Origin: an uncultured bacterium | GTDB lineage: Bacteria; Babelota; Babeliae; Babelales; RVW-14 | Length of the DNA stretch: 64,000 nucleotides | Reading direction: 5' to 3' | Assembly (NCBI GenBank): GCA_963759805.1 | Contig: CAVXAT010000002.1 | Span: forward strand, 96,001 to 160,000 | Shown: positions 8,917-36,696 of the stretch, in pieces | How the letters are laid out: the number at the start of each line of letters is the position of its first letter | Position numbering within the stretch: position 1 is the stretch's first letter | Position numbers and translations under genes: made by a program | Notes under the pieces: generated by a model | Databases searched by the model: none | Told to the model about the DNA's origin: nothing | What the model saw: the letters and a program-made list of their open reading frames with translations, nothing else

Positions 8917-10340
8917 ATGGCTAAAAAAACATTAAACATCATTTTTTTGTTCTGTGGGCATCAGTAAGTTTTTGCAATACTTTGTTACATCCGGCTGATA
9001 ATATCTCTTTAAATAAAATAGCTGTTATTGGCGCCGGATACGTAGGGTTAGTAACCGGAGCATGTCTGGCAGAAAAGGGTTTTCCCGTCATTATAGTTGA
9101 AAACAATCTTGCAAAAATTGAAGCTTTATTGAACGGAAAAGTTCCATTTTACGAACCAAAACTAGATAAACTCGTTAAAGACAATATCGATAATAAAAGA
9201 ATTAGCTTTGTAAACAGTATAAAAGAGGCATTTGAACTAAAGCCAAATGTTATTTTTTCATGTGTTGGCACACCTCCCAATGAGAATGGCTCCGCCGATC
9301 TTTCTTATGTTTTCCAAGTCGCTACAGATATAGGAAACAATATGTCTGAGTACTGCTTAATTATAAATAAATCAACAGTTCCGGTTGGAACCTGCGAGAA
9401 AGTTAAAAATATTATTAATACACAACTCAAAAATCGCAGGGGTCTCGATTGATTTTGATGTCGCATCCAATCCAGAATTTTTAAAACAAGGCGATGCCGT
9501 TAGCGACTTCTTTTTTCCGGATAGAATTGTAATTGGTGTTGAAAATAAAAGAGCCGAAGAAATTTTACGTCAAATTTACTCGCCATTTATAATAAATTCC
9601 AACCAATTATTGGTAATGGACATCCCATCTGCCGAACTTACCAAATATGCATCGAATGCTATGCTTGCTACAAGAATAAGTTTTATGAACGAACTTGCAC
9701 TGCTTGCAGACAAAGTTGGTGCAGATATTAATCAGGTCAAACTTGGAATGTCAAAAGATAAAAGAATTGGATCTTATTTCCTCAATGCTGGCATTGGATA
9801 TGGCGGAAGTTGTTTTCCAAAAGATGTTAAAGCTTTGGTGGCAACAGGACTTGAATATGGCCAACCAATGACAATAATCCAAGCAGTAGAAGATGTAAAC
9901 AATAATCAGAGATTAATCTTTGCTCAAGAAATATTAGATTTTTATGGAACAGAAATATCAAATAAAAACATTGGAATTTGGGGGCTTTCATTCAAGCCGG
10001 AAACAGATGATTTACGCTGTGCTCCATCAATCGATATTGTTAGTTTATTACTTGAGCATGGATGCCAAAATCACAGCTTACGACCCGGCTGCACAAAATA
10101 ATTTCAAAGCTCTTTTTGGTAATAAAATAAATTATGCACAAACTTCACAGGAAATTCTTGAACAATGCGACTGCTTGGTTATTTTAACTGAATGGAAAGA
10201 GTTTCTTAAAATATAAGCCATCTGACTTTAATTTATTAAAAGAAAAAGTCGTTTTTGATGGTCGCAACTGCTTTGATCCGGCAGAAATGTTGGATGCTGG
10301 GATCAAATATTTTTGTATAGGCAGAAATTTAAGTTGTTAA
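8917..10340 (+). pseudogene. ugd: UDP-glucose/GDP-mannose 6-dehydrogenase, four frameshifts (possibly sequence errors)
   Basis: IAVIGAGYVG, KSTVP, SNPEFL, GYGGSCFPKD, FKPETDD, DGRN spread over successive frames; shifts near 8945, 9440, 10060, 10210. Confidence 0.85.
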
Positions 10341-12375: not shown

Positions 12376-13278
12376 TTATCTGCAAAGATTCCTGCATTTT
12401 TTTCTTATTTTTCCAGACATTTTTCGTTCACTATTACTTCCCCAACAATCAAATGGAAATGCTGCATAAAGTTTTTCAAGATCACATTCAAACGGAGGCT
12501 CACCTCCAAGCCTCAATGCCTCTTCAACAGAAGTTGCAAAACGAAAATTCGGACGATTTGTACCTGCATAATAATCTTTATATTTAAATATTGGTTCATT
12601 TTCAGTAATTCTAAGCATTCTAGCTGGAATGTTATAAGCTTCTGCAACAATTAACCCATGCATCGCACTTGATATAACAAACTTACTATCTAATATTTTT
12701 TCAATTACCTCATCCCATGGATCTGTTGGATAAACAACATTTTTGTACTTCTTTTTAGGAAATAACTTCTGCTCTGTATAATGAGGAATAATAATATAAT
12801 CATACAATGGCGATTTTTTCTTTTTAAATTCAGGAAAAAAATATGGTAAAAGCAGAACAGGATCACCATAAACTTCCGGACAATCTATATTAAAGTTTTT
12901 CATTATAAACTGACGTGTTAAAGGCCCTCTTACTGCACGAATATCAAGACTCGTAAATGTATAATCGGATTTATTTAAACGCTTACCGCTTACACCGGAA
13001 CCCCATATAATGTCACCATCAGAGGCCTTAGCAAAAATAGATCCAACAGCAAGAAGCTTTTTTTGTTTTGCACCAATCTTTGTTTTAATTGGCCGCCCAA
13101 CTATTCTTTCTACTAATTTTAAAGAAAGATAATCACCGAAATTAACAAACGACTCCCTCAATTGCCAATAAAAAAGAGGAATTCCTTTATTTGCAGATAC
13201 ATCATTTTTCCCATTACTCGTACAAAAAGAAGCCAAGGATGCAGCTAATATTAGTAACTTAATATTAAAATTTATCAT
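12376..13278 (-). CDS. Polysaccharide pyruvyl transferase family protein with signal peptide
   Basis: NFGDYL, AVRGPLT, YGDPVLL, MHGLIVAEAY, FKYKDYY. Confidence 0.85.
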   Translation of the reverse strand: MINFNIKLLILAASLASFCTSNGKNDVSANKGIPLFYWQLRESFVNFGDYLSLKLVERIVGRPIKTKIGAKQKKLLAVGSIFAKASDGDIIWGSGVSGKRLNKSDYTFTSLDIRAVRGPLTRQFIMKNFNIDCPEVYGDPVLLLPYFFPEFKKKKSPLYDYIIIPHYTEQKLFPKKKYKNVVYPTDPWDEVIEKILDSKFVISSAMHGLIVAEAYNIPARMLRITENEPIFKYKDYYAGTNRPNFRFATSVEEALRLGGEPPFECDLEKLYAAFPFDCWGSNSERKMSGKIRKKCRNLCR

Positions 13279-14074
13279 GAGGGAAACTTTCTAATAATAA
13301 CTTTAGATCAATAACAGGTTTGGATTCTCCTCCCATTTTGAGTGCTTCTTCCAAAGAATAAGCAATGTGGAAGTTTGTCCTACCAGTTCCATAATAATAA
13401 TCTTTATACTTTAAAATATTTTCTTTTTTGGTTATTCGAAGTAATCGTGCTGGTATGCCAAATGCCTCTGCAACAATGATGCCGTGCAAAGATCCTGTTA
13501 TTACAAATTTTGCTTTTAAAATTTTTTCAACAACGGTCATACAACCTTCCGTAGGAAGCACCAAGTTGGGAAACTTTTTAAATTCTTCTATCTCATTTAT
13601 ATTTGGGATAACAATATATTCCATAGTTGGATTCACTTTTAATTCTGGAAAAAGCAATGGCATTAGTAAAGCAGGATCGCCATAAATCTCGGGACATCTG
13701 ATGCCTTTTGATATTAAAAACTTTCTCGTCAAAGGTCCTCTAACAGATCGCACATCTAAACGGGTAAACTTATGGTTCTTGAGTGGAATTTTACCATTAA
13801 GGCCACTTCCCCAAATAACATCATTATCTTGCGCAAAATGTAAAATAGAACCTAATGCAAGCATTCGCTGGCTATAGTTTTTGTTCTCTATTAGAGGTTT
13901 TTTAATAATTCTTTCTATAATTTTTGGCGAAAGAGCGTCCCCAAAATTAGATGCAAATTTCGCAGGCTTAAAATAAACCAACGATACATTTTGCTCTGCT
14001 TTTAAGATATTAGCAGCTACATCTATTAGAAACACATGTAATAACGCTACTACAATGATAAAAAATCTATTCAT
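13265..14074 (-). CDS. Polysaccharide pyruvyl transferase family protein with signal peptide
   Basis: NFGDAL, SVRGPLT, YGDPALL, LHGIIVAEAF; tandem paralog of the preceding gene. Confidence 0.85.
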   Translation of the reverse strand: MNRFFIIVVALLHVFLIDVAANILKAEQNVSLVYFKPAKFASNFGDALSPKIIERIIKKPLIENKNYSQRMLALGSILHFAQDNDVIWGSGLNGKIPLKNHKFTRLDVRSVRGPLTRKFLISKGIRCPEIYGDPALLMPLLFPELKVNPTMEYIVIPNINEIEEFKKFPNLVLPTEGCMTVVEKILKAKFVITGSLHGIIVAEAFGIPARLLRITKKENILKYKDYYYGTGRTNFHIAYSLEEALKMGGESKPVIDLKLLLESFPHDKF

Positions 14075-14083: not shown

Positions 14084-15383
14084 TTACTTTATTTTTTTAT
14101 CTTTTATAAACACTTTTTCTAAAAATACTTTTCTTCTGTTTTGTACAATCTTATAAATTTTTTTATATAAAGAAATTAAGCGGCTTAAACTAACATCTAT
14201 TGTACAATTTTCAGAAACAAAATCATATGCATTTTGCGCCAATAAATCTGCAAATTTTTTGTCATCAAGAAGCCTTTTTATTTGCATGGCCAAATCAATT
14301 TCATTATCAACGTCAAACAGTAAACCCGTCTTCTCATGTTGTATAATATAATCAGCCGGAAATCTGCCGCGCGAGACAAAATTATAGGGCACTTCATTAA
14401 TGCAGCTTCCATTAAAACTATACCAAACGCTTCCTTTTTGCTTGGTAAAACTCTGCATATCAGAAAAAAATAACAGTTCAGGGATTTTATCAGTAAAACC
14501 TAAAAAATTTACATACTCTTTTATTTCAAGTTTATTTGCTACAGCAGAAAGCTCCTCTATTCTTTTAGCAAAGCCACTTCCTGCAAATACAGCTTGAACT
14601 TCTATGTTGTGTTTTTTAATTAACTCATGCATTGCTTTTATTAATATTTCATGATTTTTATACTCATACAAATTTGCAACAACACATATAATTGGGCATG
14701 GTTTTATATTTAAATTAAAAGTTTTCTTAAAAAACTCTTTTCTTCTTTCTAAATACTGTTGAAAAATTTTCACAAGTGTTTCATCAAAAAATGGCGCCAA
14801 TAATTCAATAAATTTTATATTTCTACTTTCTTTCTTTTTTAACAAGACTAAATGAAACCGGACTAACAGCGATGAAACCCTCCATATTTCTGTATTTTGA
14901 AAGACCAGGCTGTATTGAATTATGATAATGAGCCACCATTCCTATCTTAAAAATATCACACACTTCACGAACAACCTCTAATTCATTAGATGCATTACAA
15001 TGAATTATATCAGGACAATCCTTATTGCAAAAATCAATAAGCGCTTCTTTCAAACATTTATAAAAAACATCAGGATCACTCGATTTAAACGTATGATACT
15101 TAAGATTTGTATTTTTTGCTTTAAGATAAGAATCGAAATGACCAGGAAGAAGAATATTGATTTTCATGCCGAACTCATTTAAATGAGCATACATATCCCA
15201 AGCACACTCTTGGACCCCACCCCAAAACTTATCTCCCAAAACTACTAATAAAATCTTCGGCCCCGACGATTTTGCTTTGTTACTTTTTTCGCAAGATAAA
15301 TATTCAAATATCCCGATAAAAGCACCCAATATTGCTATCATCAAAAAACTATAATTTCTAAATTTAAGCCTATTCACAATCAT
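14084..15383 (-). pseudogene. GT4 glycosyltransferase, three or more frameshifts
   Basis: N-terminal WGGVQ; the catalytic VLPSKKEAFGIVLMEAALMKCPIILSR motif lies in an alternative frame between compensating shifts at about 14455 and 14365; a further shift at about 14840. Confidence 0.75.
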
Positions 15384-15407
15384 ATACTCTTTAGCGAGCT
15401 AAGTGTA

Positions 15408-16640
15408 TTAATAAATGTAATCACGATAAGAAACGTCCACTTTGTCAATCAGCAAGACTGATTCATTAATCCATCGAGCATGTTTAGGGAATATGATAAT
15501 CTTGTGATACCCTAAAAGAGATGCACACATAGAATAATTAGATTCTGGACGGATCAGACAATCAAACTGAAACATACCATAAAAGTCCTCTACGACATTA
15601 CAATCATCTGAATTACCTTCAGTTCTGCAACTCCAGATAATATTGGGGAGATTTACTCTTTTTTTAAATTCGTTCATAAGCGGAACAGTATCCTTCGTCA
15701 GTGAAAAGATGCACAAATAGAGGAATATTGCCAAGAAATTTCGACAGCCTTATTATTTGATCAACAAAATACTGTTTAGGTGGAACTTTAAGAGGATAGG
15801 CCTTATCAACCGGCATTTTTCTTGTTGGCATTATCAGCGGCATCTTCTTATCACCAAGATCTTCACTATTACAAGGATCTTTACTATTATAATATTGCTG
15901 TGAAACAGTTTTTGCATCAGTCCCAGACCTGCGCGAACATGAACAGCAACAGTAACAATATCACGAGGATTTTTAACAGCAATCTGATTTATGGGTTTTA
16001 ACATTTTCTTCAATTCTGAACCAAATGGTTCTTGTAATGATAAAAGGTACAGTTGCGAACCTGATAACCCCAAATGTCCGCATTTTTTGATATGTTGTTT
16101 TATCTTGATATCTTGTTTTTCAGATACTTTTTTGAGACCTTTTTTCCATAATTTAATGGTGGAACAATTTAACCTCGTTTTAAACTTGCATATAAACAAT
16201 GTAGGCATTTTTGCCTCTTTTAGAGCAGTAACCAGTTGACTTTCTTCCTCAATAATAATCCCTTGGGAATAGGGCTCATTGAATGGCATTTTTTCATTGA
16301 ATTTTGCACAAATTTAACCAATTCCTCACTCGCATGCTTTTCAGCATGAAACAGTTAATTCTTGTGAATATTTAAAGGGAATAAATAGAAATGGAAGTTT
16401 ATATTTATATGAAAGCCATTTTGTTTTACTATATCCACAAATTTGATCTCCAAATCGAGACCCAGTTGGATTATATGTTATAGCATGCTTGTATTTATAA
16501 TTTGGTTTATTATTTGAACATATCCCTGATGAATAAATAAAACAAAGAAACAATACTGCAATATGAGTATTTTTTTTTCGAATAAAAAAGCTAAGAAGAA
16601 TGCATAATAAATTTCCCATTTTTAACAGTATTTCAAACAT
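15408..16640 (-). pseudogene. Fucosyltransferase-like (GT11/GT23-type) protein split by several frameshifts
   Basis: GSRFGDQ near the N-terminus, VAVHVRAGxG motif, C-terminal DCLIRPESNYS; three ORF pieces. Confidence 0.55.
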
Positions 16641-16641
16641 A

Positions 16642-17771
16642 TTAATTTATGTGATCGCTAACGCTGTCCATGTATTTGTAGAGCATTTTTTTGTTTATGG
16701 AAACCAATCTAATTGCTGAATCATTATCACCACCAACAATATGAAAAATCTTACACCCTCCTTCTTCACTCACAACAAAGCCGCATGGAAAGAACGATCT
16801 AACGTCCCTTTTGCTGTTGGCAAACCAAACGTTTTTGGATGGCTTATGCGTATAAAACTCTCGTGAAATAATAGGAAAACGTGAGATGCGCTTTATACTA
16901 AATGGAAATTTATTTTCGAACGTCATTGCACCAAAAACATAGATCCTATCGATACCTTGAGTGATACAACTATGAAAAAAAGTTAGATATTCATTATCCA
17001 CAAGGAGCGCTGCCTGTTCCTCCTCTTATTGTTCCCCATCTGTCTTCCCAACTTTCTCGCAAAAAATCTGAGTATTTATCGGTCTCAACAATTTTTTTCA
17101 ATGTATAAAAACGATCAAAGAGCAACAACGGTGTAAGGGGCAAACTGGTACACAAACCCAATGTTGTTATTAATGTTTTGATTATTGAAATTATCACTAC
17201 TATTTTCTGCAAAAGAAAATGCAGTCCAATTTTTCTCCCAAAAGACATAGGAGAAAAGCGCAAAATCTTCGTATTCTCTTTTTGAGGAATTAGCTTTTTA
17301 CCATGATTAAGCAAATCGCCAAGTCTACTTATACCAAACGAAAATGTAAAAGATTTTTTTCCTTTTTTCATAACATCTTCCAAAAATGTATATGTTAGAT
17401 ATATATCATTATTGCAAGTAAAAAGCCTGGCATCTCTTGCTCCTTTTATTCTTTTATCCAACAAAGACAAATCTAGAAACATAGATGAGCCTTGTTGCTG
17501 AAAATTTTGATCAAATATTGCCAACCCCAATTCCACCTTTCCATGTGGCCTGTTATTACGGAATGACAATAAAAATTCATCACTATATTTAATGATGGAT
17601 GCATTGCATGGACTAGTAATACCGGAGACCTCAATAACCTTAGTATTTTTTATAACTCCAATATCCTCGGCATAGGGAACATTAATAAAGTGCTTTTCGA
17701 ATTTTTTGATATGAAAAGAGTAAGCCGAAACAAAAAGTAGGGAAAAAAACAAAATAAAAAATTGACTTCAC
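16642..17771 (-). pseudogene. Beta-propeller glycan enzyme (Bmt/GH130-like), several frameshifts
   Basis: NASII, DARL, WEKNWTAF (alternative frame), IRGGT, FFHS, FFPCGFVV, GGDND. Confidence 0.65.
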
Positions 17772-17839
17772 GTTCAATAACTCCCTTCAAAAAATCAATT
17801 CTACTTTTAAAATTATTTATTCAAAAAATACCATTATAA

Positions 17840-19518
17840 TTACAATTTACCATACCTTGGCATATTACGAATATATTTATCTAATGAAATCTGAAGATCA
17901 GTGTTTGTTTTAATATCATTCCATGGTGTGTCAAAATTATAAACATGCAAAACATCTTCAATAAACATAAATCTATTACCGGCCATTTCAAGCATTGGAA
18001 ACATGATAGCCAAATCACCCGTCATAGACATAAACGCACCTTCAAACAACAAGTCTTCTCGTTTAATTTTTTTGTACAACCAAGTATAAAATGTTCTTAA
18101 ATGCGATGTAATCCACCTGTAATTTCTATAATCCCGATTTGATATGATATCATCCGGAAATTTTTGGCAAAGGCCACTGACACCCTTAGGAAATCTAATA
18201 TACTGCCCATAGGTAAGCCAAATATTTGGATCATCATAAACTTTATTTAATAAGTCGAGAACATGGTCATGCGCAAGCCAATCATCTCCATCAAGAATTA
18301 TAATTATATCTTTATCGTCACACATATGAATTGCGCGATAAATATTGGCAACAGCCCCAAGTCTCTCTGTATTCTTAATTAACAAAATTTTATTTTCTAA
18401 CTTTCGTTCTTTAATGTACTGTTCAACTAGGTTTCCAGTTCCATCAGGAGAGACATCATCTGTATAAATAACATGATAATTTTTATATTTTTGAGAAATT
18501 ACTGAGTCTAAATTTGACTTATACCACTGCTTATTATTGTAGGAGGCAATGACAAAAACAAAATGTTTATCTTCTTGTGTCTTCTTATTTTTCAATTTTT
18601 CCCACAACGGTCCCTTCTCATTGGCTCTTGGAACAAAAGAGACTTCATATGAGATATTGGACGATTTATTATTCATCCCATAAAACGTATTTATATTAAT
18701 CTTAAACCCTGAATTAAAAATACGTAAAAGCTTATTTTCTAAAAAATCTTTGATAGTCTCATCTTCTTTTAACTTATTTTGAAGAATAAGAGGGGTCAGC
18801 ATTATTGCTTTAGATTTACAAAAACACGCCATACTTAAATTTTTATTGATATGCTGTGACCATGCAGCCTTAAAATCTTTTGTTGGTTTAGAATTCAACC
18901 CACGCAAAAGAGTGTCTAAGATTATTTTTCTTTCATAAACAACCATGTCAACCAACTTGGCAAATGAACCCTTCACAAAATCCTGTATCTTCCAAGACAG
19001 AACATTTTCACCAATCTGTTTTATTTTTTTAGAAAGAATTAAAGAATCTTTTGTAATATTTTCCCCAAGACTCAAACAAAGGCCGAAAACATCAGATTCT
19101 TTGAAAGCACAAGCACAATCTCCAAAATTAACACGCTCTTTTACAATAATGCCATCAACTGTAAGAGCAACATATTTAGTCTTTATGTGCTTTATTAAAA
19201 GAGAACAAAGGACAGACTTTAAATTTGAATTTTTCACGTCTCCTACATACCTAATCATTGCCACACCGAGAAATTCTTGGCTTATATTTTCATAAGCCTT
19301 TTCAAATTTATCATCACTAGCTGAATAAAGAACAAAAATCTTATTGTATCCATTAACATACAACTTAATAGATTCCAGACATGCATACAATTTTATAGGA
19401 CAGTTGTTTGAGATCACAATTATATCGACATCATTTGTTTTTGATTTTTTTCTTGCTCACCGGAGCAATCCACAAAACTCAAAAAAATTATTACCCAAAG
19501 CAAATGAACGCTCTTCAT
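17840..19518 (-). CDS. Two-domain glycosyltransferase (GT-A-like domain fused to GT2); signal-peptide segment separated by a 1-nt shift in an A-run near 19445
   Basis: N-domain resembles 24499..25440 (LYACLESIK); C-domain IASYNN, TDDVSPDGT, LDGDDW; upstream MKSVHLLWVIIFLSFVDC. Confidence 0.8.
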
Positions 19519-19541: not shown

Positions 19542-20834
19542 TCAATTACTTAACATAAAAACACGATTATAAAGATCAATGTACAAATCTAAGACGCAGC
19601 TTTTTGAAAAATTATTCATAACATGGTTAAACGCTGAATTACCAAACTTACCTCTTAATTCTGTAGACTGAACCAATGTTTTAATCTTTAATGAGATATT
19701 TTCGAATATTTTAGGATCACATAACAGGCCTGATTCATTGTCTTTTATAACCAAGCCGGCAGCTCCGGCATTTTTCGATAAAATAATGGCTTTGTGCATA
19801 AAAGCAGCCTCTAAAATTGTAATAGAAAAAGCTTCTCCAATGCTAGGCAAAATAACAATATCAGAATGAAACATAAGGCTTGGAATATCGTTAACAAAAC
19901 CCAAAAAATGAACAAAATCATTTAAACCTAAATCAGAACAAAGTTTTTTTAACTCTTTATCCCTTGATTGCGTGGAAGCATTTCCCGCTAAAACACATTG
20001 AACTTTAATATTTTCTTTGTAAATAAGGTTATGCAAGGCATGCAAAAGCCCTTCATGATTCTTGCATTTATAAAAATTTGCAACCATAGATACCAAAGGG
20101 GAATCATTTAATTTTATTCCAAAATTTGTCTTGAAAAATAACTCTTTTGACAATGTAGGAACAAAGTTTAAAAATTTATCATCATTACAGATCGGTGGTA
20201 TAAATTCTATAGTTCCTACATCTAGTTTTTCATTTTTTCTTTTTTTATTCAAAATATTACAAATATCAGGACTTGCTAAAACTAATACATCTGCTCCGTT
20301 ATAACATTTAGCAGGTGGAACCTTATAATAATGATACTGCTGAATAACTTTTAAATTCAAAGTTTTCGCAACCTTTTTTGCCACATCAAATTCAAAAGAT
20401 ACCCCATGAGTATGAATAATCTTAATATTTAAATCTTTACAAATTTGATGAGTTGCAAAATAAAACAGATTAAATTTGTCTTTTGCAGAGATATTATCGT
20501 TATATGAAATAACATAATGCGGCAATTTTTCATCCACTAATCGCTGCTGTAAACTAGTCCCTTTCAACACAGCCAGATGCACATTAAACCCTTTTTCCAA
20601 TAAGCCTTTATAAAGGCTTAAAACGTGGTGCTGAACGCCACTTTCAGCAGGATGAAATCTAACAATCAGAACGGCAGGCTTATTCTTGGACAAAATTAAT
20701 TTTTCTTTATGATCAAAATTTATAAATTCAAAATCAGAACTCTTTGCTGGAAGGTCTTTGGCATGAATATTATATGAAAATATTGTTGATTGCAAAAATA
20801 GGAACATCGATATAAAAAGTATATTTCTTTTCAT
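19542..20834 (-). CDS. GT4 family glycosyltransferase with signal peptide
   Basis: LPSIGEAFSITILEA; MKRNILFISMFLFLQSTIFS. Confidence 0.85.
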   Translation of the reverse strand: MKRNILFISMFLFLQSTIFSYNIHAKDLPAKSSDFEFINFDHKEKLILSKNKPAVLIVRFHPAESGVQHHVLSLYKGLLEKGFNVHLAVLKGTSLQQRLVDEKLPHYVISYNDNISAKDKFNLFYFATHQICKDLNIKIIHTHGVSFEFDVAKKVAKTLNLKVIQQYHYYKVPPAKCYNGADVLVLASPDICNILNKKRKNEKLDVGTIEFIPPICNDDKFLNFVPTLSKELFFKTNFGIKLNDSPLVSMVANFYKCKNHEGLLHALHNLIYKENIKVQCVLAGNASTQSRDKELKKLCSDLGLNDFVHFLGFVNDIPSLMFHSDIVILPSIGEAFSITILEAAFMHKAIILSKNAGAAGLVIKDNESGLLCDPKIFENISLKIKTLVQSTELRGKFGNSAFNHVMNNFSKSCVLDLYIDLYNRVFMLSN

Positions 20835-21131: not shown

Positions 21132-22157
21132 ATGAAAATTTTACAAATTTTATTACTTAGTGGCTGTTTTATTGCCCAAGTTAACCTATGTAACAATATT
21201 CAGGCACAAGTTAAGTCTGATAAACATGTTATAGGAGCTAGAAAATGTGGATTTTTTTCTGAATTTTTAGGAGTACTTGCACACATTGCATGGTGCGAGG
21301 AAGCTGGAAAAAAACCGGTTGTATTTTGGGATAAAAAATTTGTTTATTATGAACCGGATGGTTGGAATAATATACAAAATGCATGGGAGTACTATTTTGA
21401 GCCTATTTGCAATGCTAAATATGAACCAACTGACATTGTTGATTACAAATTTCAAGCCCCAAATGGATTTTTTTTCCCATGGAGCGATTTTCGTAATATA
21501 GAGATAATGCGACCTCTGGCACACAGTATCATCAAAAAATATATAAAAATAAAGCCCTATGTTTTGGATATAGTGGACGATTTTCATAAAAAAACTATGA
21601 AAAATTGCATCACAATTGGAATCCATTTGAGAGGCACAAACAAAGGAACTGAAGCTAAAACTGAAATAAACCCTGCAAACCTTATTAAAAAGGCACAAGA
21701 GTATGCCTACCTGGCCGCATCAACAGGAAAAAATGTAAAATATTTGGTGGCATCTGATGAACAAAAGTTGATTGATTTTGCAAAAAAAGAATTGACTCGG
21801 CAGAGTGATGATACTGTACATGGAGAAGTTATAAGCTATACAGCAGAAAGATCAAAGGGAACGGAGACAAATTATTATACTTTCTTGGGCACGAAAAAAG
21901 AGAATGGCTTTTTTGCTAAACGAGGCCTGGACGTTTTAGTTGAAGTTTTATTACTTTCACAATGTTCATATTTTGTTCATACGAGATCAAACGTTTCGAC
22001 AGCAGTAATTTTCTTTAATCCGAATTTAATCCATTATCAATTTGATGGATTTGCAAAAATGCAAGAACAAGTCAAAACAAAGCCGACAACAACCAAACCT
22101 GCTGCAACCAAACCAACAACAAAGCCGGCGAATTTAAAAATTAAGAATAAAAAGTAG
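21132..22157 (+). CDS. NodZ/GT23-like fucosyltransferase with signal peptide
   Basis: CGFFSEF, NAWEYYFEP, GIHLRGT, LVASD, SNVS; TKPTT/TKPAA low-complexity tail. Confidence 0.75.
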   Translation: MKILQILLLSGCFIAQVNLCNNIQAQVKSDKHVIGARKCGFFSEFLGVLAHIAWCEEAGKKPVVFWDKKFVYYEPDGWNNIQNAWEYYFEPICNAKYEPTDIVDYKFQAPNGFFFPWSDFRNIEIMRPLAHSIIKKYIKIKPYVLDIVDDFHKKTMKNCITIGIHLRGTNKGTEAKTEINPANLIKKAQEYAYLAASTGKNVKYLVASDEQKLIDFAKKELTRQSDDTVHGEVISYTAERSKGTETNYYTFLGTKKENGFFAKRGLDVLVEVLLLSQCSYFVHTRSNVSTAVIFFNPNLIHYQFDGFAKMQEQVKTKPTTTKPAATKPTTKPANLKIKNKK

Positions 22158-22214
22158 ATAAACAATTAGGAGTAATACAAAAAATAGTTGGTAATTATCA
22201 GGGGAGGGGGACTT

Positions 22215-23237
22215 ATGGACATTAGATACATTTACTCAATAATTTTAGGCATCTTCGTATTTACAATTCCAATGTTTGGTGCAATTCCCAAAAACGCTAA
22301 AATTTATGTTTCCGGACACCGTGGCCTTGTGGGGTCTGCACTAGTAAACAAATTACGCACCGATGGATACACAAACATTCTTCTAAGAACATCTAAGGAA
22401 CTTGATTTGCGCAATCAAGCCGCAGTAGAAGCATTTTTCGCCAAAGAACAACCTGAATATGTTTTTCACATTGCTGCAAAAGTCGGCGGAATTAATGCTA
22501 ATTTGCTAGCTCCAGCCGATTTTATACGTGATAACCTACAAATTATCACAAACGTCATAGATTCTGCACAAAAATATGGAACAAAAAAGCTTGTTTACAT
22601 AGGATCTTCCTGTATTTATCCTCGCATTTGTCCACAACCGATCAAGGAAGAATATTTACTGTCCGCATCGCTTGAACCATCTAATGAAGCGTATGCTGTA
22701 GCAAAAATTGCAGGGATCAAATTATGTCAGGCTTTTAATCATCAATATGGAACAACATTCGTTTCATGCATGTTGCCAAATATGTACGGCCCGGGTGATA
22801 ACTTTAATTTAAAAACAAGTCACGTCCTACCCGCAATACTTGTAAAAATTTATCAAGCGAAAAAGGAAGGTCATAAATCGGCTCCCATCTGGGGAACAGG
22901 TAAAGCAATCAGAGAATTTTTGTATAACGACGACCTTGCTGACGCACTCATGTTTTTAATGGAAAATTACAATGACAACGAAATCATAAATATTGGCACA
23001 GGCGAACCTGTTTCAATTCTCGAACTTGCCAACTTAATTAAAAAGGTGGTTGGATATGAGGGTACACTTGTTTTTGATCCAACCAAGCCGGAGGGCACAC
23101 CATGCAAGGTTATGGATGTAACACGCATTCATGCTCTTGGATGGTATGCAAAAAATACGCTTGAAGAAGGCATTCGTAAAACATTAAAGTGGTATGAAGC
23201 TAATCTTGAAGAGGGCATTCGTAAAAACATTAAATAA
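22215..23237 (+). CDS. fcl: GDP-L-fucose synthase with signal-peptide-like extension
   Basis: GHRGLVG, AAKVGGI, GSSCIYP, YAVAK, SHVLPA, WGTG..REF. Confidence 0.92.
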   Translation: MDIRYIYSIILGIFVFTIPMFGAIPKNAKIYVSGHRGLVGSALVNKLRTDGYTNILLRTSKELDLRNQAAVEAFFAKEQPEYVFHIAAKVGGINANLLAPADFIRDNLQIITNVIDSAQKYGTKKLVYIGSSCIYPRICPQPIKEEYLLSASLEPSNEAYAVAKIAGIKLCQAFNHQYGTTFVSCMLPNMYGPGDNFNLKTSHVLPAILVKIYQAKKEGHKSAPIWGTGKAIREFLYNDDLADALMFLMENYNDNEIINIGTGEPVSILELANLIKKVVGYEGTLVFDPTKPEGTPCKVMDVTRIHALGWYAKNTLEEGIRKTLKWYEANLEEGIRKNIK

Positions 23238-23264
23238 GGACTTATTTACAATAGGGGGGAGAGG

Positions 23265-24413
23265 ATGATGTTATCTAAATATTATTTATTTTTAGTGTAT
23301 ATTTTAGCATCAATTTTTTTTATAAATACACAGGCATTGGATAATCAAGCAATAGAGCCCAAAAAGGCTCTGATCATTGGAATAACAGGACAAGACGGTA
23401 CTTATCTTTCTGAATTTTTACTGGGCAAAGGATATTGCGTTCATGGCATGGTTCGCAGATCATCGTCAACCAATACAGGAAGGATAGACCATTTATGCCA
23501 AAATCAAGAGCTGCAAGCCAAAAAACTTTTCACCTTGCACTATGGTGACATTACTGATGCCAGTAACGTACTCAGCATAGTTCAAGCAGTTCAGCCTGAT
23601 GAAATATACAATCTTGCAGCTCAAAGCCATGTACAAATATCATTCGAAATGCCAATTTACACTGCGCAAGTTGATGGACTGGGAACATTAAACATTTTAG
23701 AGGCCATTCGATGCGCCGGTTTGACAAAAAAAACAAAATTTTATCAAGCATCAACAAGTGAACTGTTCGGCAAAGTACAGGAGATACCACAAAAGGAAAC
23801 AACCCCATTTTATCCACGTTCTCCATATGCTGCGGCCAAGCTATTCAGTTACTGGATTTCTATAAACTATCGTGAAGCCTATGGCATATTTGCTTGCAAT
23901 GGAATACTGTTTAACCATGAATCACCAATTCGCGGTGAAAACTTTGTTACCAAGAAAATTACACACGCAGCGGTCAGGATAAAATATGGATTGCAAGATG
24001 TTTTATCGTTAGGAAATCTAGATTCCAAGAGAGATTGGGGCCATGCACGAGATTATGTTGAAGCCATGTGGCTTATCTTGCAACAGCCTCAACCTGATGA
24101 TTTTGTCATAGCTACAGGAGAGACGCATTCTGTAAGAGAATTTGTTGATCTTACTTTCAAAGAAATTGGCATTGATATTGAATGGACGGGCCAGGGATTA
24201 GATGAAAAAGGCATTGATAAAAATACCGGCAAAACACTTGTCGTAGTTGATAAAAAATTTTTCCGACCAACAGAAGTTGATTTTTTACTTGGTGATCCAA
24301 CTAAAGCCAAAAATGTACTTGGCTGGAAACCACGCATTACATTTAAAAAACTAGTAAGCGAAATGATAGAAAGCGAATTAAAAGGCATGAACAGTTGGAG
24401 AGCCGCTAAGTAA
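23265..24413 (+). CDS. gmd: GDP-mannose 4,6-dehydratase with signal-peptide-like extension
   Basis: [45 protein letters not shown]. Confidence 0.95.
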
Positions 24414-26386: not shown

Positions 26387-27184
26387 CACTCTATCCTTAT
26401 CGAAAAAGACCCCGTCCAAAAAACAATTTATCAATGCCAAAATATTAAGTAAACAAAAATTATAAAATATAACCAAGCAAAAAACATAAAAATCAATATA
26501 TAAATTCTCTTGACTTTTATATTTAAAATCATAAATAATTATCCTATTGATCAAAGAAATTAGAGAAAAGGATATGAGTGAGAAACAAATACTTCCTTAA
26601 ACAATTTGCTATATTTTTTTTAATTCCATTAGCAACACAGTCAATGACAGCAACAAATACAAATAATATGGTAATAAATACCAAATTAATTCAATTTAAT
26701 GAATCAATAGACAATGCATATAATGCATCCATAATTGAGTATGGCAGTGGGTACCTTTTAATTTTTCGACATGACACTGAAAATAAATTATGTGCATGTG
26801 GGTACAAACAACCACAAATTAAAATGGTGTGCCTAAATAAAAATTTCGAACAAGTAACTCCTATTAAAAATGTTGAAATTAAAAAAGCAACCTCAAAAAC
26901 AAATTTGACAGAGAAGCTTATTCCATTTACACCAGAAGATGCACGAATACACTCTTGTCGTAGACAGTTGTTTTTAACTTATAATAGCGATGTTGATGTA
27001 CATCAACATACTACGAAGAGTAAAACTCCATGGAGAAGACAGATGTTTAAAGGGAAATTCGACCCCAAAAAAGCTTACCTTTCAGATATTGAACAAATTC
27101 CATCAAATAATATTCCATTAACACTTGTTGAAAAAAATTGGACCCCATTTGAATATCCTGAAGGATCCGGGGGGCTTTATTATA

Positions 27185-28186
27185 ACGCCAGTTCGATAAT
27201 TAGTTAAGGCTTGGAATTTCAGCAAAAAACCCCACACCTATCGCAGGTTTGTGTTGATGAAAAGAATAGGCTGAAATTGCAGCAAAAACATTCGTGAAAA
27301 AATTTTTAACACATCTATGTCTAGTATGTTCGATTTTAAAGGTATTTTTCAGGATATTGTTAACAGATTCAATGATGTTTCGTTTTTTTAGAAAAAGTTT
27401 TTCAAAAAAGATCATGAGCTTGTTTTTCATACCCTTTTTAAGCTTTGTTATAAGCTTGAGACCACGCCTAAAAAGTTTTTCAAAAAGAGGTTGTGATATA
27501 TAACCACGATCGCCAAAAAGCCAACCCCAAAGATTTTTTGTAACTTTAGAAATAACTGATTCGTTACGGTCATCAGTATTTCCTGGGGTAATCCAAAATG
27601 ACAAAATTTCACCGAAATGATTAATCACAAGATGGAGTTTGAACCCATAAAACCAGCCCATTGATGATTTTCCGCGCTGAGCAATACCCTTAAAAACTTT
27701 GTGTGAGTAAATTCGAAGATTGTGGCACACAACCAATTTTGTGGAATCAATAAAGGCAATACCGCGCATATTTTTACTGTTGCGACTTGCAGCAAATAAT
27801 GCCAATGGCTCTGCAGCCTCATGCATTAACTCAGTAAAGCGAGTGTAGCTAACCAAAGCCCCAAAGGCTGTTTTCAATTCTTTGCAAACATGGTCTTTGT
27901 AATATCTTTTGAATGTGTGATATCCAGAATAATGAAAATATACGCAAATCGTAAGAATATCGCTTAGAGTCATGCCTCGTGGGCGTCCTGCAGCATTTAA
28001 CGTGTTATTCTTTACTCTCTTTTCTTTAACATATTTTTCATATTGCTTGCAAAAATCATCAATTTCGCAAAAAATAGTTGTTAAGAACATGTTTAGCCTT
28101 TCTCTTTTTTTTTGAGGGTTTCATTTTTCTCAATTTAAACGAGAAAGGCTTTTTTTAAAGAACTTTTTTAATTATCGAACTGGCGT
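27185..28186 (-). mobile_element. IS982-family insertion sequence (1002 bp)
   Basis: Perfect 18-bp terminal inverted repeats acgccagttcgataatta; 7-bp direct repeat TATTATA at 27178-27184 and 28187-28193. Confidence 0.95.
27200..28090 (-). CDS. IS982-family DDE transposase
   Basis: IFCEIDDF, FIDST, GWFYGFKLH, GDRGY, RNIIES, IEHTRHR. Confidence 0.95.
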   Translation of the reverse strand: MFLTTIFCEIDDFCKQYEKYVKEKRVKNNTLNAAGRPRGMTLSDILTICVYFHYSGYHTFKRYYKDHVCKELKTAFGALVSYTRFTELMHEAAEPLALFAASRNSKNMRGIAFIDSTKLVVCHNLRIYSHKVFKGIAQRGKSSMGWFYGFKLHLVINHFGEILSFWITPGNTDDRNESVISKVTKNLWGWLFGDRGYISQPLFEKLFRRGLKLITKLKKGMKNKLMIFFEKLFLKKRNIIESVNNILKNTFKIEHTRHRCVKNFFTNVFAAISAYSFHQHKPAIGVGFFAEIPSLN

Positions 28187-28688
28187 TATTATATATACAT
28201 GACATGCCCTCATATAATTATAGATCTATCTAAATCATGTAAAATAATAAAAAATGAATTAAATTTAAAAACTTTATGGGACAGTGAAATATTTGGAAAC
28301 ATTAGAGGTGGAACACCAGCTCGGTTGGTTGATGGAGTTTATCTCACATTTTTTCATTCATGGAAATTTCATACAAAAACAAAAGAATATCGATACTTCA
28401 TGGGAGCATATATTTTTGAAGCAGCCCCACCATTCAAAATTCTCGCTATTACGCCAGAACCAATTAAAAATGACGAATTATGTACAGCCAAACACAGAGT
28501 TAAAAATTTACATGTTATATTTCCTGGTGGATTTGTTGTAGAAAAGAAAGATAGGCAAACTTTATTGCATGTTGCTTGTGGAGAAAATGATTCATCAATT
28601 CGCATCATTTCAATAGATAAAGATAAATTGTGGGAAAATATGAAAAAATGTTTTTCATAAAAGTATATTATTTAAAAAAAGGGTAAAA

Positions 28689-29600
28689 ATGACAATAAAA
28701 AATTGTTTCCTTGCACCTATTCTCTTGCAAACGTTGGTTTCAATTCAAATAAATGCTAGCTCAAAAAAAATTGTACCTCCAAAAGCAGTAGAAGCCAAAC
28801 AAGAAGCCAAAAAACCTGATACAAGCAACATTTTTGACCTTAAAAATTTTGAACGCCTAGCAAACATAACGATATCTTCTGATATAAAAAAATATTATTC
28901 AGATATAGATAAAGTTGATGGATGGTTTGATAAAAGACATATTATAATACTCCTCTTAATAAATTTATTTCAAACAAAAAATAGCATTAATGGAAATTTG
29001 GGTGAAATTGGTGTTTGGCAAGGCAAATCTTTTATTCCATTAATGCTACTTGCTAAAAACAATGAATATGCTGCTGCTATAGACTGCTTTGAATCATACG
29101 AATTCAATCGCGACAATTCCGGAGGAGGTTCTTGTAGCTTCGAAATTTTTAATAAAAATGTAGAAAAGTATTGTTCAAAACATAGTAATCTTAGAGTTAT
29201 AAAAGGTGATTCCTCTAGCTTTTCAGCAAAAGATTATCTCAGTGTAATGGAAAATGGGAAAGGCTTTAGAATATTTAGCATTGATGGTTGCCATGAAGCT
29301 CCCTCTACCATTAAAGACATGGAAAATGCATTTAACTGCCTGGCTGATGGAGGCGTTATAATCATTGATGACTATTTTCACACTTGTTGGCCAGGAGTTT
29401 CTGAAGGCCTTAATTTTTTTATGAATAAAAATGTTAATTGTTTGAAACCATTTTTAATTGCATGGAACAAAATATTTTTTGCACAACCAGCCTTTGCAAA
29501 AAAATATTTTGACTTGATTAAAGAATTTTTGATTCCCAATGATGTAAGAATAAAAAAATTCTTTGGCGTAGACACGTTAATATATGATAAGCAAGGATAA
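28689..29600 (+). CDS. Class I SAM-dependent methyltransferase (Methyltransf_24-like) with signal peptide
   Basis: GEIGVWQGKS, SIDGCH, GGVIIIDDY, WPGV. Confidence 0.8.
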   Translation: MTIKNCFLAPILLQTLVSIQINASSKKIVPPKAVEAKQEAKKPDTSNIFDLKNFERLANITISSDIKKYYSDIDKVDGWFDKRHIIILLLINLFQTKNSINGNLGEIGVWQGKSFIPLMLLAKNNEYAAAIDCFESYEFNRDNSGGGSCSFEIFNKNVEKYCSKHSNLRVIKGDSSSFSAKDYLSVMENGKGFRIFSIDGCHEAPSTIKDMENAFNCLADGGVIIIDDYFHTCWPGVSEGLNFFMNKNVNCLKPFLIAWNKIFFAQPAFAKKYFDLIKEFLIPNDVRIKKFFGVDTLIYDKQG

Positions 29601-29605: not shown

Positions 29606-30532
29606 ATGAATTATAAAATACTTTTTTTATTTTTTTCACTAAGCATTAATCCCATATCAGCTAACGTTGAAACCCATCTAAAAAAAATAGTCGGAAAATC
29701 TGGAAATCACAAAATAAAAAATATAGATTTTATCTACATGATAAATTTGGATAAACGACCAGAAAAATTTGCCCGTTGCAAAGAACAACTATCTAAGTAC
29801 AATATTGAGCCATTTAGATTTTCTGCAGTTAATGGATGGGAATTACCAATGGAAACCATTAACGATGTTGGCGTAAAATACGAAACATGGATGGCGAAAG
29901 ATCTATGGGGAACTTATTATTCACCAGATAAAGGAGAGTTTCAGCATGAAATTATGAACGTCAAAGGAAGAACTTATTTCTGTCATTGTACGGTTCGCGG
30001 GCCAATTGGAATAAACCTAAGTCATCTTTCGATTCTTAAAGATGCATTGGATTCAAAATATAATACGATATGGGTAATGGAAGATGATATTCAGATTATT
30101 AAGGATCCACATAAAATTTCATCTTTAATTGATAAATTAGATAATCTTGTAGGTAAAAAAGGATGGGATATACTGTTTACAGACAAGGATGCAAAGGATC
30201 GAAATGGAAACTATGTTGTATGTTTAAGTTATGCCAAAAGACCAAACTTTTCCCCTTTGCATCCTGAACGATTTGCGGTAAGAAAACAAATTGATTCTGA
30301 TTTTATAAAAATTGGAGCACGTTATGGAGCACATTCAATGATAATTAGGAAGTCTGGAATACAAAAGCTTTTAAAATTTTTTTGTAAGTATTCCCTATTT
30401 CTTCCATATGATATGGATTTTACTATGCCTGACGACATACACTTGTATACCGTTACAGATGATATTGTATCAAACCAGCCTGGAGCACTTTCAGACAACG
30501 GATCTCCAGGATATTTGAAAAAAGAAAAATAA
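29606..30532 (+). CDS. GT25 family glycosyltransferase with signal peptide
   Basis: INLDKRPEK, RFSAVNG, LSH, VMEDD. Confidence 0.8.
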   Translation: MNYKILFLFFSLSINPISANVETHLKKIVGKSGNHKIKNIDFIYMINLDKRPEKFARCKEQLSKYNIEPFRFSAVNGWELPMETINDVGVKYETWMAKDLWGTYYSPDKGEFQHEIMNVKGRTYFCHCTVRGPIGINLSHLSILKDALDSKYNTIWVMEDDIQIIKDPHKISSLIDKLDNLVGKKGWDILFTDKDAKDRNGNYVVCLSYAKRPNFSPLHPERFAVRKQIDSDFIKIGARYGAHSMIIRKSGIQKLLKFFCKYSLFLPYDMDFTMPDDIHLYTVTDDIVSNQPGALSDNGSPGYLKKEK

Positions 30533-30577: not shown

Positions 30578-31627
30578 ATGCATATAAAAATATTTTTTAT
30601 ATGTGGCTTGTTATTCTACGTAAATTTGTCAGCCACTACCAAAAAAATAATTTACTTAGTTCCACCTTATTCTTCAGGAAAAGAGAATCTACTTTTTAAT
30701 CCAAATGAAAGGGATGACTGCAATAAGCCATTTATCGAATTAAGAAATGCAGCAGAAAAACTTGGTCATTCTTTAAAAGTAACAAAAGACATTACAAACT
30801 CAACCAATGTAGCCGCCATTGTCGTTATTACAACAAAACATTTAAATCCTGAATTTTTCAGGCAACTAGAAAAATACCCTTTAGAAAAACGTATTCTTTT
30901 TTTATACGAATCTCCATTGCTTGAGGGATGGGCGCATATTCCAGATATTACAAAGCATTTTGGAAAAACGTTTACCATGCTTGATAATTTTGTTGATAAC
31001 AAAACTTATTTTAAATTCTACATGCCACAACCATACCTAAGTATGCTTAAAAATATTCCAGATTTTGCTAAAAAGAAATTTTGTACATTAATCGCAGGAA
31101 ACAAAAACTGGAACAACGAGAAAAACCGTAACGAATTGTACTCTGAACGTAAAAAGACAATAAAATTCTTTGAATCTCTTCACCAAAATGAATTTGACTT
31201 ATATGGCATAGGCTGGAATACAAAAGAATACCCATCTTATAAGGGGAATATTACAAATAAAGCACAAATTCTGCAACAATACAAATTTTGCATCTGCTAT
31301 GAAAATATTCAAAACGTTTTTGGATATGTTTCTGAAAAGATTTTCGATTGCATGGCGGCAGGATGTGTTCCTGTTTATTGGGGAGCATCAAACATCCCAG
31401 ATTATGTTCCTGCTAACTGTTTTATTGACCGCCGTAAATTTAAGTCGCATGACGATTTATATCTATTTTTAAAAAGCATGGATAAGAAGACATATAACAA
31501 ATATCTAGAAAACATAAAAAGGTTCTTTAATTCTTCGCAGGCATCAAACTTTTCAATAGATAATTTCATAAAAATATTTTTTGCTGCAATCGATAGCTCC
31601 AAACAACAAGATCCTGGAAATGAATAA
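30578..31627 (+). CDS. GT10 alpha-1,3-fucosyltransferase-like protein with signal peptide
   Basis: YKFCICYEN..GYVSEKIFDC..GCVPVYWGA. Confidence 0.85.
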   Translation: MHIKIFFICGLLFYVNLSATTKKIIYLVPPYSSGKENLLFNPNERDDCNKPFIELRNAAEKLGHSLKVTKDITNSTNVAAIVVITTKHLNPEFFRQLEKYPLEKRILFLYESPLLEGWAHIPDITKHFGKTFTMLDNFVDNKTYFKFYMPQPYLSMLKNIPDFAKKKFCTLIAGNKNWNNEKNRNELYSERKKTIKFFESLHQNEFDLYGIGWNTKEYPSYKGNITNKAQILQQYKFCICYENIQNVFGYVSEKIFDCMAAGCVPVYWGASNIPDYVPANCFIDRRKFKSHDDLYLFLKSMDKKTYNKYLENIKRFFNSSQASNFSIDNFIKIFFAAIDSSKQQDPGNE

Positions 31628-33542: not shown

Positions 33543-34508
33543 ATGAAAACAAATCATTCTATACACCTGGTTATATTTTTAGTTTCTAATTTTACAACCA
33601 TGATCTTGTGTAGTGCAACCTTTATACAAGTAAAGTCGATACCATCGTCAAATAAAACACAAAATATTGATTCTGAAAAGTATATCCTCAGGGCTCGTGA
33701 GAACTGTGGATTTTTCTCAGAATTTTTGGGGGCAATTCAAAACATTTCATGGTGCGACCAAGAAGGAAAAAAAGCTGTCATATACTGGGATAATAAGAGT
33801 TTATATTACGAACCCAACGGTTTTAATAACTCACATAATGCTTGGGAATATTACTTTGAACCGATTTCTGATGCCAAATATGAACCGGGCAATAAAATAA
33901 ATCGAGTGTATGAAACACCAAGTGGATTTGGAATCCCTTATAAGGATTACAGCCATATGGAAGAGCTACGATCGAAAATGCATGCGGTTATTAAAAAGCA
34001 TATAAAAATCAAACCCTATGTTTTAGATGTAGTAAACAATTTTTATAATAAAAATATGAAAAATTGCATTGTGATTGGCATCCATTTAAGAGGAACAGAT
34101 AAGAAATTTGAGGCAAAACCAATAAATCCATTGGCTGTTATAAACAAGGCAAAAGAATATGCTCAATCGGCAAAAAAAATAGCTACCCAAAAGCAAATTA
34201 AGTTCCTTGTTGCTTCTGATGAACAACGCCTAATCAATTTTGCCAAAAAGAATTTGAATGGAAATGTGATAGTTTATGCCCAAGCAATGCGAAGCGCTGA
34301 TGGAAAACCTGTTCATTATACCCATGCAAATAATAAAGTAGAAAAGGGATATTTTGCCAATCTGGGACGTGATGTTCTGGTTGAAGCCCTTCTGCTTGCA
34401 CAATGTGATTTTTTTGTTCACACTCGATCAAATGTATCAACGGCTGTAATTTTATTTAATCCAAATTTGATTCATTTTCAATATGACGGATATGCTAATC
34501 TTGATTAA
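33543..34508 (+). CDS. NodZ/GT23-like fucosyltransferase with signal peptide
   Basis: CGFFSEF, NAWEYYFEP, GIHLRGTDK, LVASD, SNVS; paralog of 21132. Confidence 0.75.
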   Translation: MKTNHSIHLVIFLVSNFTTMILCSATFIQVKSIPSSNKTQNIDSEKYILRARENCGFFSEFLGAIQNISWCDQEGKKAVIYWDNKSLYYEPNGFNNSHNAWEYYFEPISDAKYEPGNKINRVYETPSGFGIPYKDYSHMEELRSKMHAVIKKHIKIKPYVLDVVNNFYNKNMKNCIVIGIHLRGTDKKFEAKPINPLAVINKAKEYAQSAKKIATQKQIKFLVASDEQRLINFAKKNLNGNVIVYAQAMRSADGKPVHYTHANNKVEKGYFANLGRDVLVEALLLAQCDFFVHTRSNVSTAVILFNPNLIHFQYDGYANLD

Positions 34509-35835: not shown

Positions 35836-36696
35836 ATGAATATGCGTTTTTTAACACAAATTTTGTCATTGTCTTTGGTCATATATACCAGCCAGCTAAT
35901 TGCGGTTGGGACATCTGCCATTGCTTATAAGCAACCAGAAATTCCCAAAGATCATGTTCAAATCAAATGTACTATAAAACGAATTGATCGAAGCTCACAC
36001 CATCGAACCCACCCACATATCCCAACGAAAGGTGAGATTCTAGGCTACAGCACAAACTGGAGTGGATATGTGGCAGAAACTAACCTGACCAAGCCAGCCC
36101 CCAATTCGGTTACTGCTGTATCTGCATATTGGATCGTCCCCGCTATAAAACCTGCTAACACCAACACTTACTGTGCTGTTTGGGTTGGAATAGATGGGTA
36201 TAGCAATTCAACGGTCGAACAGATAGGGACTGAACATGATTGGTCGAATGGGGGAATACAGCATTATGCCTGGTTTGAAATGTATCCAGGTGATAGCTAT
36301 TCGATCAATGGATTTCCTCTTAAAAGCGGTGACGTGATTACCGCTTCGGTAACATATTCATCGAAAAATGTTTTTACAATGATTTTATCCAACCAAACAC
36401 AGAAAGTTACCACGACAATCCCAACTAAATATACAAAATCAGCATCTGCCAAAAGACAATCAGCCGAATGGATAGTAGAGGCGCCATATATGAATACTGT
36501 TTTGCCTTTGGCAAATTTTGGAACAGCTTATATGGCAAACTGCAAAGCAACTATCAAAGGGGTCACCGGTTTGATTAATAACAAAGCATGGGCCAGCAGT
36601 GCAATAGAGATGATAACTAATTCCGGTACCCCAAAGGACTCCCCATCAATTATCGGTAGTAGCGGCTCTTTTTCTGCTACCTGGATGCATCAGTAG
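35836..36696 (+). CDS. Secreted glutamic peptidase, family G1 (eqolisin)
   Basis: STNWSGY, WVGIDG, EQIGT, YAWFEMYP, SAEWIVEAP; signal and pro region. Confidence 0.9.
   Translation: MNMRFLTQILSLSLVIYTSQLIAVGTSAIAYKQPEIPKDHVQIKCTIKRIDRSSHHRTHPHIPTKGEILGYSTNWSGYVAETNLTKPAPNSVTAVSAYWIVPAIKPANTNTYCAVWVGIDGYSNSTVEQIGTEHDWSNGGIQHYAWFEMYPGDSYSINGFPLKSGDVITASVTYSSKNVFTMILSNQTQKVTTTIPTKYTKSASAKRQSAEWIVEAPYMNTVLPLANFGTAYMANCKATIKGVTGLINNKAWASSAIEMITNSGTPKDSPSIIGSSGSFSATWMHQ

Follow-up and report, generated by a model that had tools for sequence, protein, structure and literature searches.

The fcl and gmd genes analysed here lie side by side in a 64,000-nucleotide stretch of DNA (hereafter the window) from an uncultured bacterium of the phylum Babelota (synonyms Dependentiae and TM6), positions 96,001 to 160,000 of contig CAVXAT010000002.1 (assembly GCA_963759805.1). 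fcl (22215-23237, + strand) encodes a GDP-L-fucose synthase-like protein of 340 residues, and gmd (23265-24413, + strand) a GDP-mannose 4,6-dehydratase of 382 residues. Enzymes of the canonical cytoplasmic pathway start within a few residues of their Rossmann motif, and neither window protein does: Fcl has 23 residues ahead of its core, and Gmd has 32 residues ahead of the sequence KKAL.

Both long starts are backed by Shine-Dalgarno (SD) sequences. The SD tract of fcl (22201-22210, + strand) places GGAGG 7 nt 5' of the ATG at 22215 and forms an anti-SD duplex of -10.6 kcal/mol; the alternative starts, an internal ATG at 22272 (+0.5 kcal/mol) and an upstream TTG at 22188 (+0.6 kcal/mol), have no SD. 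The G-rich SD tract of gmd (23254-23264, + strand; -9.5 kcal/mol) precedes tandem ATGs at 23265 and 23268, with a spacing slightly better for the second. No ATG occurs between 23268 and the motif, and an internal GTG (23295, +3.6 kcal/mol) and TTG (23337, -1.9 kcal/mol) have no usable SD. These energies were calculated with a generic anti-SD, because the assembly yielded no 16S 3' end. SD sequences precede 56% of 108 unambiguous starts in the genome versus 5% of 1680 internal Met codons. A preliminary description of the stretch, made from the sequence alone, had reported both extensions, their strong SDs, the lack of an SD at ATG 22272 and of a later ATG in gmd, and is borne out on all these points.

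The extensions look like Sec-type leaders. In Fcl, the predicted leader covers residues 1-23 (22215-22283, + strand), with a hydrophobic core and small residues preceding the enzyme core at the putative cleavage site; its n-region has a net charge of 0, lysines lie C-terminal to the hydrophobic run, and Ile replaces the usual Met at the start of the core. The 32-residue extension of Gmd (23265-23360, + strand) would consist of a leader of 24 residues, ending T-Q-A at the predicted cleavage site, and a polar spacer of eight residues.

The enzyme cores behind these leaders are intact. Gmd scored 582 bits against TIGR01472 (curated cut-off 415), and its Thr, Glu and YxxxK residues, aligned to the solved enzyme, are T164, E166, Y188 and K192. 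Fcl scored 431 bits against NF047922, below the curated cut-off of 500 and still by far its best family; a leaderless Fcl copy of the same genome scored similarly (428 bits). Residues S131-C133, Y160, K164 and H203 of Fcl align to residues 107-109, 136, 140 and 179 of 1BSV. The Thr/Glu/YxxxK set of Gmd and the Ser-Ser-Cys/YxxxK/His set of Fcl are the catalytic residues of these enzymes. A single-sequence AlphaFold model of Gmd was unusable (predicted local distance difference test, pLDDT, of 35). In conclusion, the window Gmd and Fcl have SD-backed long starts and carry intact cores behind predicted Sec signal peptides.

Leaders on nucleotide-sugar enzymes in the Babelota and Chlamydiota

Leaders were called in the genome of the window (G000; C numbers denote its contigs, other G and L numbers the genomes and loci compared) and in related genomes with our own hydropathy and charge rules, not with SignalP. 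The rule flagged 515 of the 1276 called open reading frames (ORFs) of G000 (40%) versus 118 of 3895 internal Met positions (3%), and it also picks up first membrane helices and some Rossmann strands. Calls overruled by eye as false were L206, the chlamydial L229 and L248, and eight proteins of G000; the call for the ManC of L375 is probably false.

By these rules, the leaders have the anatomy of substrates of Sec and signal peptidase I, that is a short positive n-region, a hydrophobic region of 7-15 residues and a polar c-region, the neutral n-region of the window Fcl being a departure. The n-region spans about five residues and is net positive in 68 of 71 Gmd leaders, and the median uncharged run is 12-14 residues (13 in Gmd). 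Identity among leaders is 24-28%, versus 65-69% for the Gmd and Fcl cores. As judged from their composition, the leaders conserve anatomy, not sequence, and resemble signal peptides. Catalytic motifs were kept behind them: of the 72 leader-bearing Gmd, 69 have one of the two motifs and 71 the other, and those of Fcl occur in 33-34 of 34. Two other routes were rejected: Tat, with no twin-arginine motif in 117 leaders and no TatC in 61 genomes, and the lipoprotein route through signal peptidase II, with a lipobox cysteine in none of the 71 Gmd, 34 Fcl and 11 ManC leaders. Genome-wide, leaders show an enrichment for Met directly after the predicted cleavage site ([AGSC]M in 64/287 versus 22/284), found in nine of 20 host-like and two of 15 envelope proteins. 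Conceivably such a Met shields the mature protein once it is in the cytosol of a eukaryote, which we mention as a lead only.

Gmd matches were found in 136 of the 251 genomes of the phylum. The 120 gmd loci retrieved, from 105 genomes, favour best hits and the family of the window and are not a random sample; within them, 72 of 120 Gmd had a leader, as did 34 of 67 Fcl and 11 of 33 ManC. The preliminary description had proposed a comparison with orthologues, and the extensions proved to be shared with relatives. The leader was on the only Gmd copy found in 40 of 78 single-match genomes. In a scan of all genomes, seven of 82 Gmd had a leader (six from Babelota, one chlamydial) and the other 75 had none. 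Among the 30 best hits to a leader-bearing Ugd, all 28 that could be parsed had a leader; for ManC, 29 of the top 30 hits to a leader-bearing query were parsed and 24 flagged, one probably falsely. In a control set of 30 PGM/PMM-family loci taken from 415 matches, none of the 28 that could be parsed had a leader. Mannose-1-phosphate and GTP are cytosolic metabolites in eukaryotes. PGM/PMM being untagged and ManC tagged, tagging therefore begins at ManC, where mannose-1-phosphate and GTP would need to be available.

Neighbouring genes tend to share leader status. It agrees in 55 of 62 adjacent Gmd-Fcl pairs, and 132 of 167 soluble neighbours of leader-bearing Gmd have leaders, versus 44 of 118 beside leaderless Gmd. 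A GalE/RmlB-like NAD-dependent epimerase with a leader (L119:448-1557, - strand) was observed near a leader-bearing fcl-gmd pair. Of 57 genomes in which every Gmd found carries a leader, 26 had no ManC match, versus five of 38 in which none does, and a divergent or eukaryote-type pyrophosphorylase could be overlooked in the ManC-negative genomes.

Trees were built with FastTree. On the tree of 191 Gmd cores, the leader label requires 15 changes, of which starred branches force at least six. Each of G185 and G134 holds a leader-bearing Gmd whose sister is its own leaderless Gmd (support 100 and 98), within a well-supported clade of mostly leaderless copies. This tree implies at least six gains or losses of a leader, some of them on recently duplicated copies. 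Two Gmd paralogues were observed in several cases (L021/G035, L020/G093, L167/G080, L171/G044, L148/G033, L151/G067 and L193/G121). One long-branched group in which all Gmd have leaders may, speculatively, have changed activity, as the bifunctional GMD of PBCV-1 did.

In the Chlamydiota, Gmd was found in 53 of 150 genomes, and eight of the best 30 loci had a leader (10 flagged, two rejected by eye), with a leader-bearing Fcl at three of these eight. Two markers identify these genomes as chlamydial: Hc1 was present in 5/5 and the type III gate (FHIPEP) in 4/4 genomes tested. The OmcB profile gave only sub-threshold matches, in two of four. An Atlas search with one chlamydial neighbour protein gave no match. 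Leader-bearing chlamydial Gmd lie nearest Babelota copies and not leaderless chlamydial ones, with support too weak for naming a donor.

The surrounding cluster and the rest of the genome

fcl and gmd belong to a cluster of about 32 kb (2611-34508) of mostly leader-bearing glycan enzymes; between 19542 and 34508, 13 of 15 called ORFs have a leader, and only a transposase and the ORF that follows it do not. The cluster encodes a GT10 fucosyltransferase, two NodZ/FUT8-like proteins, GT2, GT4 and GT25 glycosyltransferases, two pyruvyltransferases and a methyltransferase. Directly upstream of fcl, on the same strand, is a leader-bearing NodZ/FUT8-like candidate fucosyltransferase (21132-22157, +), which has no Pfam match itself; it is 54% identical to the leader-bearing NodZ/FUT8-like product of 33543-34508 (+; PF05830, E 9e-6, below the curated cut-off), and its Atlas neighbours are NodZ, FUT8 and O-FucT proteins at 0.93-0.94. 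Other leader-bearing products are the GT10 fucosyltransferase (30578-31627, +; PF00852, E 1e-15), the GT25 enzyme (29606-30532, +), a Methyltransf_24/TylF-like methyltransferase (28689-29600, +), a GT4 enzyme (19542-20834, -) and the two polysaccharide pyruvyltransferases (12376-14074, -).

Parts of the cluster are damaged. A UDP-glucose dehydrogenase-like gene (ugd; 8917-10101, +) is broken over three frames. Its Rossmann motif is preceded by an ATG with an SD and by a hydrophobic stretch, and it probably once carried a leader. Fragmented genes lie at 14084-19417. A DDE transposase gene (PF13612; 27200-28090, -) separates the ORFs 26578-27207 and 28199-28660, which resemble two halves of one leader-bearing gene; similar fragments occur at 16642-17752. 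Beyond the cluster, the window encodes a Peptidase A4 family (glutamic peptidase) protein with a leader (35836-36696, +) and a FUN14-family protein (40517-40939, +), the latter directly upstream of a GspE/PilB-type ATPase gene.

The genome (1.5 Mb, 88.7% complete) also encodes a leaderless version of the pathway. As the preliminary description had proposed to check, a second, signal-less gmd-fcl pair is present, on contig C8; it is about 59-60% identical to the window pair, and its neighbours are PseB, an ABC exporter and GT4 genes. The leaderless Fcl of C8 (L014:8362-9660, - strand) has an in-frame insertion of roughly 110 residues. A ManC-like gene on contig C11, GalU, two PGM/PMM-family genes and two Ugd-family genes are likewise leaderless; the absence of manB and manC noted in the preliminary description holds for the window only.

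Among leader-flagged soluble proteins outside the window, 213 of 293 were scanned for families. Leader-flagged envelope proteins of G000 include TolC-type, OmpA, OmpH, autotransporter and secretin proteins. A eukaryote-like set also has leaders: two ubiquitin-specific proteases (L310:4475-5731 and L346:1-1656), two cyclin-domain proteins (L313:12761-13819 and L320:10486-11256), one of them fused to ankyrins, a histone deacetylase-family protein (L310:9551-10708), ankyrin proteins and WD40 proteins. The partners of ubiquitin and cyclin proteins are eukaryotic, and judging from this set, leaders of this kind may be able to bring cargo into the host. A ribonucleotide reductase with a clear leader was observed on C1 (L341:4116-5954, - strand; best match NrdJ, below cut-off), and is predicted to be another normally cytoplasmic enzyme that is exported. 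Other observations in G000 are a cytidine deaminase-family protein with a leader (L342:14624-15172, - strand, C8), a run of genes at C11:95261-100320 (- strand) whose N-termini resemble, by eye, mevalonate-pathway enzymes, and 12 matches to the ADP/ATP translocase family.

Possible destinations of the leader-bearing enzymes

On the sequence evidence, the leaders are best read as genuine targeting, under selection and acquired repeatedly, of a pathway that textbooks place in the cytoplasm. G000 encodes a signal peptidase I (PF10502, E 5e-41), three secretins and a GspE/PilB-type ATPase; the ATPase, encoded in the window, is closest to GspE, with a score below cut-off. No match to the type III export gate (PF00771) was found in this genome, which is 88.7% complete. 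Type II secretion has been reported in the phylum (PMC4378268, PMC4776705), whose members are described as intracellular parasites of protists (PMC4776705, PMC12172432).

That the leaders direct the enzymes out of the cytoplasm, either to the host or to the periplasm, is probable. We give an even chance to the reading that we prefer, Sec transport followed by type II export to the host cytosol or vacuole, where the enzymes would feed co-exported fucosyltransferases with GDP-fucose. Translocation by Sec would be followed by cleavage by signal peptidase I, and the outer membrane would be crossed via the type II secretin; the protist host would supply GDP-mannose and NADPH, from which Gmd and Fcl would make GDP-fucose. 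The product would most likely be a glycan coat with fucosyl, pyruvyl and methyl groups, assembled on the parasite surface from the outside, and the leaderless pair of C8 would act in a conventional surface-glycan pathway in the cytoplasm. The chemistry of the tagged glycan enzymes requires GTP, NADPH, NAD, phosphoenolpyruvate (PEP) and S-adenosylmethionine (SAM), none of which is a normal periplasmic solute. The host cytosol or vacuole is favoured because of the eukaryote-like cargo, of these cofactors and of the genomes without a ManC match.

The preliminary description had proposed that GDP-fucose is made outside the bacterial cytoplasm, which the leaderless second pair, the phylum-wide leaders, their repeated gains and the leader-bearing fucosyltransferase-like neighbours support well. 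It had also named host GDP-mannose as a possible source, on the grounds that the window has no manB or manC; host GDP-mannose cannot be argued from the window because the genome holds a cytoplasmic ManC. A host source is plausible from the 26 ManC-less genomes counted above and from Babela massiliensis, whose protein table (PMC4378268, file 9) lists no ManC (COG0836). An Fcl-type epimerase (COG0451) is likewise absent from that table.

Several observations weigh against export to the host. Gmd is an NADP-binding oligomer, which would need refolding after Sec transport of the unfolded chain, and type II substrates fold in the periplasm, normally without NADP(H). The secretins may serve a type IV pilus: the one on C4 resembles PilQ more than GspD by score, though all matches are below cut-off, and PMC4776705 leaves the question open. 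Only Gmd has a leader in six of the 62 adjacent pairs, and three genomes of the window's genus have leaderless Gmd only. Comparisons on independent pairs of the Gmd leader with the Fcl leader, LpxC loss and ManC loss had too few pairs (four to seven), and the links with LpxC and ManC loss did not hold in them (median p of 1); Fisher p values overstate such links. B. massiliensis is reported to grow inside a vacuole (PMC4378268), which would add one more membrane. Its Gmd gives independent support for a leader, but from only one of three SignalP models (flanking GT4 enzymes from two and one, phosphomannomutase from none; file 9), in one supplementary table cell that the available text of PMC4378268 does not discuss.

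All the leader evidence fits equally well with enzymes that are exported by Sec and stay in the periplasm, which host GDP-mannose, NADPH, PEP and SAM would enter via a leaky outer membrane, often free of lipopolysaccharide (LPS); no second transport step would be necessary. Only 53 of 251 genomes gave an LpxC match, and leader-bearing Gmd is present in 61 of 79 genomes lacking LpxC versus six of 26 genomes with LpxC. DsbB was above cut-off in none of 61 genomes, so that cysteine enzymes might stay reduced, and G000 encodes a Legionella-type porin. However, LpxC is present in G000 itself, the link with LpxC is not independent of kinship, GDP-mannose and NADPH are at or above the usual porin size limit, and the same leaders occur on proteins needing eukaryotic partners. 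We regard a periplasmic location as less likely than export to the host, yet as the most serious alternative to it. A membrane anchor, in which an uncleaved extension would hold the enzymes on the cytoplasmic side of the inner membrane and leave the chemistry in the cytoplasm, is improbable. It would agree with the 29 of 71 Gmd and nine of 34 Fcl leaders that have a 19-residue window above a hydropathy of 1.8, and with the neutral n-region and downstream lysines of the window Fcl. The median uncharged run is nevertheless too short for a bilayer, the positive charge preceding it in nearly all Gmd leaders would, by the positive-inside rule, put the C-terminal domain outside, and the genomes without a ManC match would be left unexplained.

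It is also quite improbable that internal starts make mainly ordinary cytoplasmic enzymes, the long form being minor or one of two isoforms. The Met of the ancestral start is retained in 31 of 34 leader-bearing Fcl, and an SD-backed internal ATG exists in a few Gmd and ManC genes, so that dual starts are conceivable outside the window; yet the SD score of the retained Fcl Met is 0-1 in 30 of 31 cases, 40 of the 72 Gmd with a leader lack any other start codon close to the core (10 residues or less), and in the window this Met is an Ile and internal starts have no SD. Very improbable is the view of the window pair as a decaying acquisition without a current role. The broken ugd, the fragmented genes, the transposase and the leaderless Gmd of the three same-genus genomes would fit with it, whereas the pair shows no damage to its reading frames, SDs or catalytic residues, and the phylum-wide pattern would not be accounted for.

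More broadly, export to the host leads to a tentative proposal, which we consider possible: Babelota and some environmental chlamydiae would run a virus-like glycosylation factory inside the host. Sec signals would have been added repeatedly to ManC, Gmd, Fcl and Ugd, and here also to ribonucleotide reductase, and these enzymes, with dozens of transferases, would build the parasite coat from outside or re-glycosylate host molecules in the protist cytosol.

Comparison with known systems

Nucleotide sugars are classically made in the bacterial cytoplasm, and glycans are exported on lipid carriers. In eukaryotes, GMD and FX are cytosolic, and UXS1-type enzymes of the Golgi lumen, which are type II membrane proteins, perform nucleotide-sugar chemistry in an extracytoplasmic compartment beside transferases. 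If the proposed export is true, protist parasites of two bacterial phyla produce and consume activated sugars beyond their own cytoplasm, part of the unexplained Babelota secretome, above 40%, acquires a concrete job, and a way for LPS-free lineages to build a surface is suggested. B. massiliensis, a cultured member with a leader-bearing Gmd and without a ManC in its annotation (PMC4378268), makes the proposal directly testable. A literature search outside subscription journals found no description of signal-bearing Gmd, Fcl, ManC or Ugd, and supplements may hold predictions.

Within the phylum, Chromulinavorax destructans is reported to have signal peptides on 44% of its coding sequences (PMC6561590), versus 40% in G000, and B. 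massiliensis is similarly leader-rich, with Sec and type II secretion (PMC4378268). In the parts of these articles available, the secretome discussion concerns ankyrins, proteases and hydrolases (PMC6561590, PMC4378268), and the words 'fucose', 'glycosyl' and 'polysaccharide' do not occur in the available text of PMC6561590.

The window enzymes share their folds, their catalytic residues and a frequent adjacency of genes with the bacterial manC-gmd-fcl pathway (Escherichia coli Gmd, 1DB3, and Fcl, 1BSV; TIGR01472, NF047922). Known members of that pathway are cytoplasmic and start at the Rossmann motif, whereas ManC, Gmd, Fcl and Ugd of Babelota occur with Sec-type leaders. The glycogen enzymes of Chlamydia trachomatis are alike in being cytoplasmic-type enzymes that act in the vacuole on host UDP-glucose; according to the sections available, they use type III secretion, have no signal peptide, and GlgC, the activating enzyme, is not secreted (PMC4829429). 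In Babelota, in contrast, the signals are Sec-type, nucleotide-sugar synthesis itself is tagged, and G000 gave no match to a type III gate. The chlorovirus PBCV-1 encodes a GMD (a118r) and a GMER (a295l), parasite enzymes thought, in the part of PMC4691112 consulted, to raise limited host GDP-fucose at cytosolic replication sites. Host ribosomes synthesise the giant-virus enzymes, which require no export, whereas a bacterium must tag and ship them. By analogy, the window system would function like the C. trachomatis and chlorovirus cases and is a member of neither; it would be a case of parasite-run extracytoplasmic sugar metabolism in a Sec-tagged form.

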